51,376 nucleotides of DNA from Nitrospirota bacterium (GCA_040758355.1 JBFLWF010000018.1:1-51376); one strand, 5' to 3'. Positions 16,587 through 20,503 are shown, numbered from the stretch's first letter. Numbers and translations: made by a program. Notes: generated by a model from the sequence alone, not told the origin.

Positions 16587-17816
16587 ATGAGCTCTATTGT
16601 TGACACATCTTTTTTAAATTTCAGTTTCACCAATTCCATCTACGGCAAATACACACAGGTTCAGAAGAACAGCTATATAAAGTCCATCCAATCCCAGGAA
16701 GGCGCAGCAAATACTAAAATAAGTGCACTGGGCAAGCTCCTGAATTCCCTCGAAGAACTGAAAACGAGCCTTGAAGGCATAAAAACAGAATCCCTCAAGA
16801 TAATGAAAGCCGAGGTCTCTGACGAAGGGATTTTAACGGCAACGGCATCTTCATCGGCAACAGAAGGTTCATATTCGGTAAGGGTCGATAGAACTGCGAA
16901 ATCGCATACCCTTTATTCAAAGATATATCCTGCTGAAAATTCGGCTGTGGGTACTGGCATGCTGACCATAAGGATAGGAGACAATATAGGAGTCGATTTA
17001 AATATAACGGAATCGAGAAAGACACTCTCCAGAATAAAAGACGTCCTGAATGCGTCTGATGCTGATGTAAATGCATCGCTAACAAAAGAGGCCTCGGGCT
17101 ACAGGCTCGTGATCTCTGCTAAAGACAGCGGTGACGGAAATAAAATAAACATAATCGTATCCGATGACGATCTGAATAATACTGATTCAAACGGCCTTTC
17201 CGCTCTTTCATACGACACAAATACCGCAAAAAACATGACGGAGTCCACTCCTCCTTATAATGCTGTTTTGTTTGCAGACAGCAGCTTCTTTGAAAAGACC
17301 GAAAATGAAATAACGGATGCAATAACCGGCGTAACCATGAAACTCTTAAAGGAAGACGACAAATTCCCAGTGTACATTACAGTATCGGAGGATCAGAGTT
17401 CCCTAATATTCGAAAAGCTCGATTCCTTTGTCGAGGCATATAATAATGTTGTCAAATTAGTGGACGAGCTTCAGGATACAAGCGGAATAATGAAAAAGGA
17501 CTCCTCTGTGGGTTATTTGAGGAACTCCCTCACAGACATCCAGACAAAGACTTATAATAATTCGACCCTTAAGTCCCTCGGGTTTAAATTCGACACAAAA
17601 GACATCATGTCCCTCGACATCGGGAAAATGAACAGTGCAATGATTTCAAACCTGAGCAATGTAACCACTACCCTAAATTCCCTCGCAGGAGAGCTGGAAA
17701 CAACGGTCAACAGCTATATTGACTCTATTATCCCCGGCCAACAGGATACCTACAGAACGCTCATAAACGAATACATCAAGGCTGAAAAAACAACCCACAA
17801 GTCATTCAACAGATGA
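16587..17816 (+). CDS. FliD-like flagellar filament cap protein (orphan)
   Basis: KISALGKL, ATASSSATEGSYSVRV, GYRLVISAKDSG, NEITDAITGVTMKL, FVEAYN motifs; termini atypical. Confidence 0.75.
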   Translation: MSSIVDTSFLNFSFTNSIYGKYTQVQKNSYIKSIQSQEGAANTKISALGKLLNSLEELKTSLEGIKTESLKIMKAEVSDEGILTATASSSATEGSYSVRVDRTAKSHTLYSKIYPAENSAVGTGMLTIRIGDNIGVDLNITESRKTLSRIKDVLNASDADVNASLTKEASGYRLVISAKDSGDGNKINIIVSDDDLNNTDSNGLSALSYDTNTAKNMTESTPPYNAVLFADSSFFEKTENEITDAITGVTMKLLKEDDKFPVYITVSEDQSSLIFEKLDSFVEAYNNVVKLVDELQDTSGIMKKDSSVGYLRNSLTDIQTKTYNNSTLKSLGFKFDTKDIMSLDIGKMNSAMISNLSNVTTTLNSLAGELETTVNSYIDSIIPGQQDTYRTLINEYIKAEKTTHKSFNR

Positions 17817-18409
17817 TAATAAAACTCACCGACGAAAACCTCGGCGAAGTAATAAATAAAGCCATTGCTGTTCTCAAAAATGGAGGAATTGTCGCATATC
17901 CCACAGAGACCTTTTACGGCCTCGGGGCAAAATACGATATGGATTCAGCCCTCGGAAGGCTTTACGAAATAAAAAAGAGGCCCCAAGAAAAGGCAATGCC
18001 GCTGATTATAGGCAGCAGAGAGGAACTGTTCCTTATCACCGATTCGGTGAATGAATCGGCAAGGGACCTCATGGACAGATTCTGGCCCGGGCCGCTGACC
18101 ATTCTCTTTCGCGCCCGTCCCGGGCTTTCAGAATACATCGTATCAGAAAGCAAGGTGGCGGTAAGAATTCCCGGAGAATCATTTGCCCTCAGACTTGCAA
18201 GGGCAGCAGGATTCCCCATAACCTCCACCAGCGCAAATATATCTGGCATGCCTCCCGCTGACAGTGCATCGATGGTCTCCGATTATTTCGGAGGAGGGAT
18301 TGATTTAATAATTGACGGCGGCAAAACAAAGGGCGAATTACCTTCTACGATTGTTGACATAACCGGCGACATGCCAAAAACCATCAGGCATGGATTGATA
18401 GATATTTAG
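17813..18409 (+). CDS. tsaC: L-threonylcarbamoyladenylate synthase (Sua5/YrdC)
   Basis: YPTETFYGLG, KKRP, FWPGPLT, STSANISG, PSTIVD. Confidence 0.93.
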   Translation: MIIKLTDENLGEVINKAIAVLKNGGIVAYPTETFYGLGAKYDMDSALGRLYEIKKRPQEKAMPLIIGSREELFLITDSVNESARDLMDRFWPGPLTILFRARPGLSEYIVSESKVAVRIPGESFALRLARAAGFPITSTSANISGMPPADSASMVSDYFGGGIDLIIDGGKTKGELPSTIVDITGDMPKTIRHGLIDI

Positions 18410-18538
18410 TCCTTGCAGTCCCTTTATTCAAGCCACTTCTAAGACCACGATACAGATAAGTCTAATTCTTGAACGATCGTTTCCTAAAATAGAATGTTCT
18501 ATAAAAAACAACTTTCGTTTTAAAAATTAATTTTTTTG

Positions 18539-18567
18539 TTGACAAAAGGAAAATTATGGTGTATAGT
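18539..18567 (+). promoter_or_regulatory. Sigma70 promoter
   Basis: TTGACA-N17-TATAGT with an upstream AT-rich tract, followed by AAGGAG RBS. Confidence 0.8.
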
Positions 18568-18587
18568 TTTCCATAAAAGGAGAAAGG

Positions 18588-19133
18588 ATGCTTAAAAGCT
18601 TATTCTCATCATCCATACGAGCAGATGTTCTGGCGCTGTTATTGAACAGCCCTGAAGAGAAATTCTACGTGAGAGAGATCGCAAAGCTCTTAAGAAAAAA
18701 CCCGTCAGGAGTAAAAAGGGAGCTCGACAAACTGGAAGAGATGGGGCTCGTAATAAGCGAAAAGGTTGCAAACCTCAAATACTTTCATGCAGACAAGAAT
18801 TCCCCCCTGTTTTCGGAGTTAAAAGACCTCATAGCGAAATCACTCGGACTTCCCGGAGCCTTGAAGAGCCTCTTAAGGGCGAATGATATAAAGTCGGCGT
18901 TTATCTACGGACCGTATGCCGAAGGAGAAGAAACCCCAACCGTTGACCTGATAGTAATCGGCTCGTTCACCTCGGCGCTCCTGGTCGGTTTGCACGATAT
19001 CGAAAAAAAATTCGGCAAAAGGATAAATTGCACCGTAATCGAAGAGGCAGAATATAAGCAGAAAAAGCAGAAGGATGCCGCCTTAAAACGCATCCTTGCA
19101 GAAAAAAGGATTACTTTGCTGGGAAGGGTTTAA
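18588..19133 (+). CDS. ArsR-like winged-HTH fused to a degenerate minimal nucleotidyltransferase domain
   Basis: FYVREIAKLL...GVKRELDKLEEMGLV wHTH; AFIYGPYAEG...TVDLIVIG resembles the MNT GS...DxD motif but is degenerate. Confidence 0.75.
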   Translation: MLKSLFSSSIRADVLALLLNSPEEKFYVREIAKLLRKNPSGVKRELDKLEEMGLVISEKVANLKYFHADKNSPLFSELKDLIAKSLGLPGALKSLLRANDIKSAFIYGPYAEGEETPTVDLIVIGSFTSALLVGLHDIEKKFGKRINCTVIEEAEYKQKKQKDAALKRILAEKRITLLGRV

Positions 19134-19202
19134 CCTTTTTAAAAGTTCCCTTAGAGATATTTCTTTTAAGGTCTTTAAGGGACAGGAAGGGAGGTGAACG
19201 GC

Positions 19203-19268
19203 ATGGCAGCAAAAAAGAAAGCAGCAGCAAAGAAGGCTCCGGCAAAGAAGGCCGCAAAGAAGAAATAA
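19203..19268 (+). CDS. 21-aa Lys/Ala-rich histone-H1-like peptide MAAKKKAAAKKAPAKKAAKKK (not in ORF track)
   Basis: Manual translation; strong SD GGGAGGTG upstream; TAA stop; paralogue immediately downstream. Confidence 0.8.
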   Translation: MAAKKKAAAKKAPAKKAAKKK

Positions 19269-19312
19269 CAACGCGTTTAAAGGTATTTTAAAACCGAAAG
19301 GAGGTGAACTTA

Positions 19313-19393
19313 ATGGCAACAGCAAAGAAGGCAACAGCAAAGAAGGCTCCGGCAAAGAAGGCCGCTGCAAAAAAGACTGCAAAGAAGAAATAA
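19313..19393 (+). CDS. 26-aa Lys/Ala-rich histone-H1-like peptide MATAKKATAKKAPAKKAAAKKTAKKK (not in ORF track)
   Basis: Manual translation; strong SD AAGGAGGTG upstream; TAA stop. Confidence 0.8.
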   Translation: MATAKKATAKKAPAKKAAAKKTAKKK

Positions 19394-19421
19394 CAACTGT
19401 TTGTAGAGGAAGTAAGAAATT

Positions 19422-19488
19422 AGGGAATACCCAAAAGACAATTTTGTATTCGAGGAAACTGAGTTTTTGGGTATTCCCTCTTTTTTTT
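19422..19488 (+). terminator. Intrinsic terminator
   Basis: 15-bp stem AGGGAATACCCAAAA/TTTTGGGTATTCCCT with a 28-nt loop, then a T8 tract, between convergent genes. Confidence 0.75.
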
Positions 19489-19490
19489 AG

Positions 19491-20390
19491 TTAACTATAG
19501 TTTAAAACATGGTGAGGCAAATGGTCAACTTCCGATGAGATAAGGCTGTAGGAGTCAATAGACGTTATCAGCTTCTTCAAGAAATTTATGTTAGCTGTAT
19601 GGCCTGCCTTTTCAAGCATGATATGCCCGTGTATCGGAAATCCAATTAAGGATAAATCTCCAATAGAATCAAGGACTTTGTGCCTTACAAACTCGTCCTC
19701 GAACCTCAGACCTGCAGCATTCAAAATACCGTCATCGCCTACGATCACGGCATTGTCGAGGGAGCCGCCCTTTGCAAGGCCGTTTGCCCTTAATTTCTCC
19801 ACATCGCTAAGGAATCCGAAGGTTCTGGCAGGGGCTATCTCCTGTACGAAGGTCTTTTCATCGATGTCTACAGTAAGCTCCTGCTGTCCCAGCATGCGGT
19901 GTCCGAAATTTATATAGTACGATATACGCATACCATCATACGGCAGGGCAACAATCCTTGAGTGGGCATCCTCGTAAACAACAGGTTTGGAAATCTTTAT
20001 AAAGGGCATCTTTTTACCCTGCTTTGCTATGCCTGCCTCAAGTATAATTCCGGCCAGCTTTGTAGAACTCCCATCCAGTATGGGGATTTCAGGGCCGTCA
20101 ACCTCTACAATAAGGTTGTCGATGCCGAGACCGGCTGCAGCGGCAAGCAGGTGTTCCACTGTCTTTACCTTTACCACATCCGAACCATTTACAAAGCCGA
20201 TTGTGGTGGCAAAGGCCGTGTCAACAACAGAGGTGATATTCGCCCGTATTATTGCACCCTTGTCTACACGGTAAAAGACTATGCCTGTATCCCTGGAGGC
20301 AGGTTTTAGCTTCACCGTTGCATACTTGCCTGTATGCAGACCGATACCGTGGAAAGTGACCTCTTTTTTAATTGTTCTCTGTAATCTCAT
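19491..20390 (-). CDS. lpxC: UDP-3-O-acyl-N-acetylglucosamine deacetylase
   Basis: QRTIK...GIGLHTG, TVEHLLAA, APARTFGF, RHKVLDSIGD, GH; start at MRLQRT. Confidence 0.96.
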   Translation of the reverse strand: MRLQRTIKKEVTFHGIGLHTGKYATVKLKPASRDTGIVFYRVDKGAIIRANITSVVDTAFATTIGFVNGSDVVKVKTVEHLLAAAAGLGIDNLIVEVDGPEIPILDGSSTKLAGIILEAGIAKQGKKMPFIKISKPVVYEDAHSRIVALPYDGMRISYYINFGHRMLGQQELTVDIDEKTFVQEIAPARTFGFLSDVEKLRANGLAKGGSLDNAVIVGDDGILNAAGLRFEDEFVRHKVLDSIGDLSLIGFPIHGHIMLEKAGHTANINFLKKLITSIDSYSLISSEVDHLPHHVLNYS

Positions 20391-20405
20391 TGAGTTGTGA
20401 ATATT

Positions 20406-20421
20406 TGCAAATAATATGCCA
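20406..20421 (-). promoter_or_regulatory. Sigma54 -24/-12 promoter of lpxC
   Basis: Minus strand TGGCATATTATTTGCA with exact GG-N10-GC spacing. Confidence 0.7.
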
Positions 20422-20503
20422 CCACAAAAACAGATATAAAACAAGGGGATATAAAATCAGGAGTGTTGATTAATTTCGCTTGTGTGTAATATTTACCACA
20501 CCT

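Follow-up and report, generated by a model that had tools for sequence, protein, structure and literature searches.

The window analyzed here, a stretch of 51,376 nucleotides from a Nitrospirota bacterium, carries between tsaC and lpxC a promoter-like site, a gene for a regulator that combines a winged-helix (wHTH) domain with an MNT-fold domain, two short open reading frames (sORFs) for lysine- and alanine-rich (K/A) peptides, and a terminator-like hairpin (Table 1). An initial annotation, made from the sequence, had described this layout, and every part lies where it had been placed: the consensus sigma70 promoter, the wHTH gene, the two sORFs with their near-perfect Shine-Dalgarno (SD) sequences, and the terminator, which is an inverted repeat of 23 nt (19414-19436/19465-19487) closed by a T run. 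With its own promoter-like site and its own terminator-like hairpin, the unit is also self-contained, as had been claimed. A consensus scan did not pick up the terminator, which was seen via a repeat finder, because the hairpin loop is too long. According to the repeat finder, sORF1 and sORF2 are 87% identical across 70 nt. An AU-rich stretch precedes the hairpin that lies between the regulator and sORF1. The tsaC neighbor is a local linkage; directly upstream of it, apart from other flagellar genes, lies a FliD-like flagellar cap gene (16587-17816, + strand), which is found at the same position in just eight close loci.

Table 1. Features of the regulator-peptide locus, with positions counted from the first letter of the window.
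Feature	Position	Strand	Remark
tsaC/Sua5 gene, context only	17813..18409	+	Upstream neighbor; same in 40/101 class loci
AAC-N4-GTT palindrome, candidate operator	18472..18481	.	-67 from -35 hexamer; at most 1 mismatch in 55/102 class loci
AAC-N4-GTT palindrome, candidate operator	18510..18519	.	-29 from -35 hexamer; at most 1 mismatch in 60/102 class loci
Sigma70-type promoter-like site TTGACA-17-TATAGT	18539..18567	+	11/12 consensus matches
Regulator, 181 aa, ArsR-like winged helix and MNT-fold domain, PDC-M05A family	18588..19133	+	
Hairpin, candidate 5' stabilizer of a processed RNA	19145..19183	+	Centroid structure; gap between regulator stop and first RBS
SD GGAGGTG of sORF1	19190..19196	+	6 nt before ATG
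sORF1, 21-aa K/A peptide (10 K, 9 A)	19203..19268	+	ORF translation
SD GGAGGTG of sORF2	19300..19306	+	6 nt before ATG
sORF2, 26-aa K/A/T peptide (11 K, 10 A, 3 T)	19313..19393	+	Tandem duplicate of sORF1
Intrinsic-terminator-like hairpin and T run	19414..19488	+	Faces convergent lpxC
lpxC, convergent, context only	19491..20444	-	Downstream in 92/100 class loci and 6/31 sister loci

Linkage of K/A Peptides to the Regulator

Homologous loci came from the window's class (135 fetched, 105 distinct), from other Nitrospirota classes (31), and from a Methylomirabilota-type metagenome clade (80, 14 of them too short for evaluation), in which cluster members bear the names Methylomirabilota or NC10. 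A K/A-rich sORF lies behind the regulator in 104 of the 105 distinct class loci, the recurrence that the initial annotation had proposed to look for; the 105th locus ends at the stop codon. One sORF is present in 97 class loci and two in 7, at 32-207 nt from the regulator. All 31 loci of the other Nitrospirota classes contain the regulator, which shares 40-46% identity and the promoter context; it is overlapped by a HEPN-like gene, after which come one to three K/A sORFs. The order of regulator, HEPN-like gene, and sORFs is found in 66/66 evaluable metagenome loci. The linkage holds while flanking genes change, with or without a HEPN gene. The SD, start, and stop of the sORFs are likewise kept in relatives, so that neither of the two sequence-level observations that could have refuted the initial annotation was made. 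Related genomes are not independent observations, and these counts therefore overstate.

Two regulator-sORF units per genome occur in three genomes (L104/L119, L106/L141, and L097/L142), the second copies (L119, L141, and L142) having no lpxC neighbor. One locus with 82% identity and the class neighborhood (L089) belongs to a record titled Chloroflexota and is probably a mis-binned contig.

Composition and Selection of the Peptides

The 111 class peptides are 13-150 aa long (median 25) and consist of 43% K, 34% A, 11.5% T, and 5% P; 106 of them end in KKK. They are predicted to be disordered polycations with a net charge of about +10, and their K/A/P/T-rich, low-complexity composition agrees with the likeness to histone H1 tails pointed out at the outset. 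The peptides have no match in Pfam, score 13.9 bits against NF038052 (cut-off 135), and reach E 0.047 with the Hc2 model, being too short and too low in complexity for homology to be judged in this way. For a 54-aa homologue, the nearest Pfam-bearing Atlas cluster has HC2 on 17% of its members. An exact look-up in a collection of 15 billion proteins returned neither window peptide. The window ORFs are unlikely to be due to chance, as a scan of the whole 2.77 Mb genome for ORFs of 12-80 aa with at least 30% K and at least 55% K+A gave matches at four places: the window locus, two further sites on contigs C13 and C17, and an acidic, secreted-looking ORF on C1. A Cys near one peptide end, which could allow dimerization or metal binding, occurs in L056, L044, L062-L065, L160, and L168; it is C-terminal in families f18 and f22 and N-terminal in the 108- and 150-aa forms.

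A GG(A/G/T)GG SD core precedes all 111 class sORFs by virtue of the detection rule itself. A composition-blind rule, which takes the first strong SD and the next ATG, finds a K/A ORF in 97/104 loci, and the seven misses are loci with an earlier SD-like motif. The assembly yielded no anti-SD sequence. By crude counting in 37 disjoint pairs of equal-length peptides, pN/pS is about 0.13 (0.127; 158 synonymous changes over 588 sites vs. 66 non-synonymous changes over 1935). The Lys codons AAG and AAA stand at 972:413 in the sORFs vs. 1084:1097 in the regulators of the same loci, and AAA-AAA makes up 34 of 761 pairs in the sORFs vs. 70 of 291 in the regulators. Together, the composition-blind rule, pN/pS, and the Lys codon bias argue, within the limits of comparing related genomes, that the peptide is translated and selected. 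Judged from these sequence comparisons, the K/A sORFs are under purifying selection at the peptide level, as the initial annotation had suggested from the two window copies.

It might be supposed that translation of a Lys-rich ORF is itself the signal, acting as a lysyl-tRNA sensor or a ribosome sink, and that the peptide is a by-product; about 43% of the codons specify Lys, tsaC lies upstream in 40/101 loci, and some HEPN nucleases target tRNA-Lys (PMC3710099). This would be very surprising, given that the sORFs end the operon and leave nothing downstream to attenuate, that slippery AAA-AAA is avoided while the Ala, Thr, and Pro content and the KKK end are conserved, and that the tsaC linkage is local.

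The wHTH-MNT Regulator

Both domains attributed to the regulator, a wHTH and a degenerate nucleotidyltransferase domain, are borne out. HTH_5 passes its cut-off in the N-terminal domain in a profile search, and residues 1-90 of the model (pLDDT 85) superpose on CzrA, SmtB, BigR, and HlyU with Z 10-11.4 and rmsd 2-3. The Polbeta match of the C-terminal domain is weak in the profile search (E 0.067); with residues 87-181 modelled alone, the closest structures are those of MNT proteins, including 1no5 (Z 8.0, rmsd 2.8, 86 aligned), 8xeh (Z 7.6), and MntA 7bxo (Foldseek E 9.6e-4), and the top six rows of the structure search are all nucleotidyltransferases, though Z values of 7-8 are middling. PADLOC model PDC-M05A matches the whole regulator at full length (E 9e-41). 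A PDB sequence search gave nothing significant. The score of the metalloregulator model NF033788 is 24.9 against a cut-off of 55, and no Cys or His is invariant in the regulator alignment (A1). Within the class the recognition-helix region hardly varies, and that of the sister clades is similar.

The regulator is present in 52/61 relatives, nearly always as a single copy and mostly at 57-98% identity. Across the phylum, 117/251 genomes have a match and whole families have none; the system is thus dispensable in many of the families searched. Profile searches, run with no positive control, found no regulator in five genomes of families f10, f4, and f8 and in five of the f25 genomes that hold stand-alone peptides. 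Another locus (L265, G119:C49:63400) encodes a short wHTH protein related to the regulator (E 4e-6); the ORF behind it has a strong SD and is not rich in K/A.

What sets the peptide-linked regulators apart is the loss of the nucleotidyltransferase motif. By a strict pattern, GS-x10-DxD is kept in 0/216 of them (0/105 in the class, of which 99 were scored by script and 6 by eye; 0/31 in sister classes; and 0/80 in the metagenome clade). It is kept in 119/134 outside relatives by a slightly looser pattern, which the sister sequence L062, having DxD with GA, would also pass. In the class, GS is replaced (by Pro in 75/99) and the first Asp is missing in 99/99 parsed sequences, one Asp survives in 84/99, and the former active-site loop is acidic; in the sister clades, both motif Asp residues are replaced in most cases. 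Substitution of GS or DxD in MntA abolishes adenylylation (PMC7641770). The initial annotation had offered modification of the Lys-rich peptides by the MNT domain as one possible function. Retention of the MNT fold and of one Asp in most class sequences is what such nucleotidylation could rest on; it is nevertheless extremely improbable, since none of the peptide-linked regulators has the catalytic motif and changes equivalent to those seen in the class abolish MntA activity (PMC7641770).

Candidate Operators and the Transcript

A TTGAC anchor was located in 102/105 class loci. Relative to this -35 hexamer, AAC-N4-GTT palindromes with at most one mismatch recur at -67 and -29 in the class (Table 1), at +13 in 22/31 loci of the sister classes, and at -8, +13, and +34 in 48, 72, and 60 of 75 loci of the Methylomirabilota-type clade. 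The positions -29, -8, +13, and +34 are spaced by 21 bp, and in each of the three clades palindromes overlap the promoter. GTT half-sites in the 21-bp register are retained in the class, with window half-sites ending in GTT near 18498 and 18540, and the 18510..18519 box followed after 18 nt by GTTGAC occurs nowhere else in the genome. This arrangement suggests that the regulator likely binds the AAC-N4-GTT boxes and represses its own promoter. In a consensus scan, the stretch from 18567 to the sORFs gave no promoter-like site, and no promoter motif is conserved in the 3' end profile of the class loci.

A stem ending just before the first SD is present in 86/101 class loci, as against 32 expected from shuffles, and is not enriched in the Methylomirabilota-type clade (20/55 vs. 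15 expected). The hairpin downstream of the sORFs has z below -2 in 89% of 104 loci. Contigs of one metatranscriptome, which come from a single study without strand or level and may include DNA carry-over, cover 19164-19486, several of them at 99% identity or more, together with part of lpxC. In run X1 no contig spans tsaC or the regulator (17600-19114); these are contigs only, and the gap proves nothing. A loose end after 19486 in one contig is presumably Illumina adapter. Another contig joins 19481 to letters matching the first base of the 5' hairpin near 19145, a joint that could be a tandem duplication in that strain or a library artefact. The contigs hint at a distinct RNA, about 337 nt long, with one of the two hairpins at either end. 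A search of 18300-19600 against Rfam gave four matches, all far below the gathering scores, and these were rejected.

Stand-Alone Copies

Near-identical K/A peptides of 20-21 aa with the same SD stand alone in 7/46 genomes of family f25 (L258-L264, genus g72), in varied neighborhoods, with no regulator within about 2 kb and no HEPN nearby. They were found in a DNA pattern search of 251 genomes with a pattern so strict that it missed the sORFs of the window and is no guide to their distribution. A second sORF pattern found nothing in five genomes without the regulator, a search that is equally uninformative. The window genome itself has two further stand-alone K/A ORFs, on C13 and C17, and in L055 (G024:C4:81053) the regulator is truncated after about 44 codons, with promoter and sORF remaining. 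The peptide family can therefore do without the regulator, and the operon is one means of its control.

The ORF on C13 (C13:9518; L256, position 2019, + strand) encodes 29 aa with two N-terminal Cys residues and has a strong SD and a terminator-like hairpin; it is preceded, at a distance of about 190 nt, by a long inverted repeat without an Rfam match at gathering score. The ORF on C17 (C17:30720; L257, - strand) encodes a K/A/P peptide of 55-57 aa and lies beside tRNA-Sec, upstream of a radical SAM gene.

The stand-alone copies, the sORF that outlasts its truncated regulator in L055, and RNA contigs that mark out a unit with the 5' hairpin at one end and the terminator at the other might lead one to think that the sORFs are passengers, a free-standing, highly expressed family with its own promoter that happens to sit behind a decaying toxin-antitoxin remnant which has no control over it. 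We regard this as improbable: the linkage extends across two phyla, with a gap of 32-207 nt in the class, while other neighbors change; the regulator is strongly conserved (57-98% identity), unlike a decaying remnant; and neither a promoter-like site from 18567 to the sORFs nor a promoter motif in the 3' end profile was found.

The HEPN Partner and Probable Ancestry

The absence of a HEPN gene, noted early on, holds for the window's class, where tblastn found no match in any of the 105 loci or in the window genome; it does not extend to the sister lineages, which keep a HEPN gene that appears decayed. PF05168 passes its cut-off for 3/4 sister HEPN-like proteins tested, and PDC-M05B matches both that were tested. 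Six mobile-type paralogues with an intact DxD have a HEPN neighbor and no K/A sORF, and the His/Asn and Tyr residues of their HEPNs are missing from 31/31 and 66/66 of the peptide-linked HEPNs. The sister HEPN linked to the peptides is likely, though not certainly, inactive, since class II HEPNs in any case do without the canonical RNase motif (PMC7641770) and one HEPN uses a different site (PMC11586414). L060 was left out, as it gave no tblastn match, and L061, next to polysaccharide export genes, is a distant paralogue. The sole PF05168 match in the window genome belongs to a separate pair on C72 (L266, 1480-1981, - strand), which consists of a small MNT with an intact motif and a short 75-aa HEPN and lies upstream of ORFs that look CRISPR-associated by eye.

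Because the sister operons keep HEPN between regulator and sORFs, their ancestor would have been a class II MNT-HEPN pair, and this HEPN gene explains where the MNT domain came from. The operon is thus likely derived from a wHTH-MNT/HEPN toxin-antitoxin pair, with the lineage of the window now without HEPN. In an unrooted tree of 46 proteins, in which 21/24 outgroup proteins have no locus context and P0129 is labelled peptide-linked without its locus having been seen, the peptide-linked regulators are set apart by a branch (support 95/78, present in 94% of bootstrap trees), surrounded by intact-motif relatives. The same group had a support of 86 in a first, quick-method tree of 82 rows, where it took in one intact-motif protein. 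By an AU test, an alternative in which four mobile relatives group with the window's clade was not rejected (p 0.076), so that a single origin of the peptide-linked regulators is favored by these trees, not proven.

This ancestry raises the question of whether the peptide is a replacement toxin that collapses the nucleoid under stress or phage attack, with the regulator as an antitoxin that represses it or sequesters it through the acidic MNT loop. In the window's class the peptide holds the position of the toxin, the parent family is among the PADLOC candidate defense systems, the chlamydial protein HctA is lethal in excess in E. coli (PMC3469542), and the former active-site loop is acidic. 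Set against these points are the near single-copy, syntenic, and vertical pattern, unlike that of mobile toxin-antitoxin pairs, the extra and stand-alone copies without an antitoxin, the very strong RBSs, and the ready recovery of sORF sequence from an RNA library, which leave little room for a toxin.

Comparison With Known Systems

The operon resembles class II HEPN/MNT modules, relatives of type VII HepT/MntA, in its MNT fold and, in sister lineages, in the overlapping order of MNT and then HEPN. It differs from them in that the catalytic motif is lost, HEPN is absent (apparently decayed in the sisters), and K/A sORFs have been added; unlike mobile HEPN/MNT pairs, it occupies a fixed chromosomal position at near single copy. 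With respect to PADLOC PDC-M05, component A is matched and component B is absent in the window's class, and both are matched in sister lineages; we found no function for PDC-M05 in print, and the consulted part of a PADLOC-related preprint (10.1101/2024.01.29.577857) does not mention the system.

The peptides share K/A/P/T repeats of variable number with H1-like proteins and tails, namely HctB/Hc2, HctA, the C-termini of AlgP and PhaF, HupB/Hlp, and the PAKKA repeats of Ku. The known cases are either tails attached to folded domains or longer proteins, of 125-350 aa, whereas the window-type product is typically about 25 aa and is the whole protein; furthermore, unlike these proteins, the window-type peptides are unannotated, are often encoded by two or three tandem genes, and lie behind a dedicated regulator derived from a toxin-antitoxin system. 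The regulator is similar to ArsR/SmtB autorepressors in its winged-helix fold and in the palindromic boxes that overlap the promoter, but it carries an MNT domain, lies far below the metalloregulator cut-off, and adjoins no metal-resistance genes. It also recalls MtlR and GlnD/GlnE-type enzymes, taken as domesticated, inactive HEPN or MNT-HEPN derivatives, as a toxin-antitoxin system turned regulator; in those cases the nucleotidyltransferase is active or HEPN stands alone, whereas in the present operon both seem to have decayed and what is conserved is the DNA-binding domain.

The domestication of toxin-antitoxin systems into regulators is a recognized idea (PMC3710099; PMC2701414). We found no description of this operon or of such peptides in the full-text literature searched, which takes in a minority of the subscription journals. 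K/A repeats and toxin-antitoxin domestication are both already known; no account of their combination, or of peptides this small as stand-alone products, came up in that search.

Proposed Mechanism

Our preferred model is that of a vertically kept, former toxin-antitoxin operon in which an autorepressor doses micropeptides that would bind and compact DNA like histone H1 tails; for the model as a whole we put the chances at about even. In a first step, the winged helix would bind AAC-N4-GTT boxes set two helical turns apart across the sigma70 promoter. The MNT domain, without nucleotide transfer, may serve as an oligomerization or partner-binding module, and its likely partner in sister lineages would be the HEPN that has no equivalent of the Arg-His/Asn pair and the conserved Tyr. 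The transcript may then be cut or trimmed behind the regulator to yield the RNA of about 337 nt with hairpins at both ends, and through this processed, hairpin-protected RNA, peptide output would exceed regulator output. Finally, strong RBSs would drive synthesis of disordered peptides of 13-30 aa, sometimes up to 150 aa, with a charge of about +10, which could coat DNA irrespective of its sequence. Autorepression would protect against the toxic effect that such proteins have in excess.

DNA coating and compaction is the most likely role of the peptides by analogy with three precedents: KPAA-repeat peptides bind DNA in vitro (PMC9239181), PAKKA repeats modulate DNA binding by mycobacterial Ku (PMC3553676), and the chlamydial protein HctA, which a small RNA restrains, condenses the nucleoid of E. 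coli and kills when in excess (PMC3469542). The same operon and control might also serve peptides whose main partner is another polyanion, such as rRNA or ribosomes, mRNA, or polyphosphate granules, and which would act as counter-ion, chaperone, or condensate former. Composition alone cannot choose the target, and RNA or polyphosphate would suit. Small ribosomal proteins are typically Arg-rich and length-constrained, unlike the window-type peptides, which vary from 13 to 150 aa. The KPAA domain of AlgP organizes polyphosphate granules (PMC9239181), and the ancestral toxin family targets RNA (PMC3710099). The Arg-free K/A/P/T repeats, however, match the DNA-binding precedents (Hc2, at a weak E 0.047; Ku PAKKA, PMC3553676), and we consider a different polyanion as the main partner to be rather unlikely.

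With DNA as the preferred target, a more specific version of the model can be put forward tentatively, at somewhat less than an even chance. A class II MNT-HEPN pair of the PDC-M05 type would have been domesticated once, with both members turned pseudoenzymes, and would now act as a feedback regulator of the smallest known stand-alone bacterial H1-like chromatin peptides, which would be an abundant part of the nucleoid that is invisible to annotation; Thermodesulfovibrionia would be the further reduced, HEPN-free end of a system of anaerobic Nitrospirota and Methylomirabilota.

Significance and Perspectives

The locus indicates a conserved family of basic proteins of very small size, which gene callers overlook and tryptic digestion would destroy. 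Because such peptides escape both gene callers and tryptic proteomics, nucleoid inventories probably fall short for these bacteria, which cycle nitrogen, sulfur, and methane. At 13-30 aa the peptides are cheap to synthesize, so that the minimum length of an H1-like tail needed for DNA organization becomes testable. In addition, candidate operators are supplied for the large, unstudied wHTH-MNT family, which has 5536 representatives at E 0.001 or better. Finally, the lineages form a graded series from an intact mobile MNT-HEPN pair, through an apparently decayed pair with peptides, to the HEPN-free state, which would make this a rare traceable case of toxin-antitoxin domestication.
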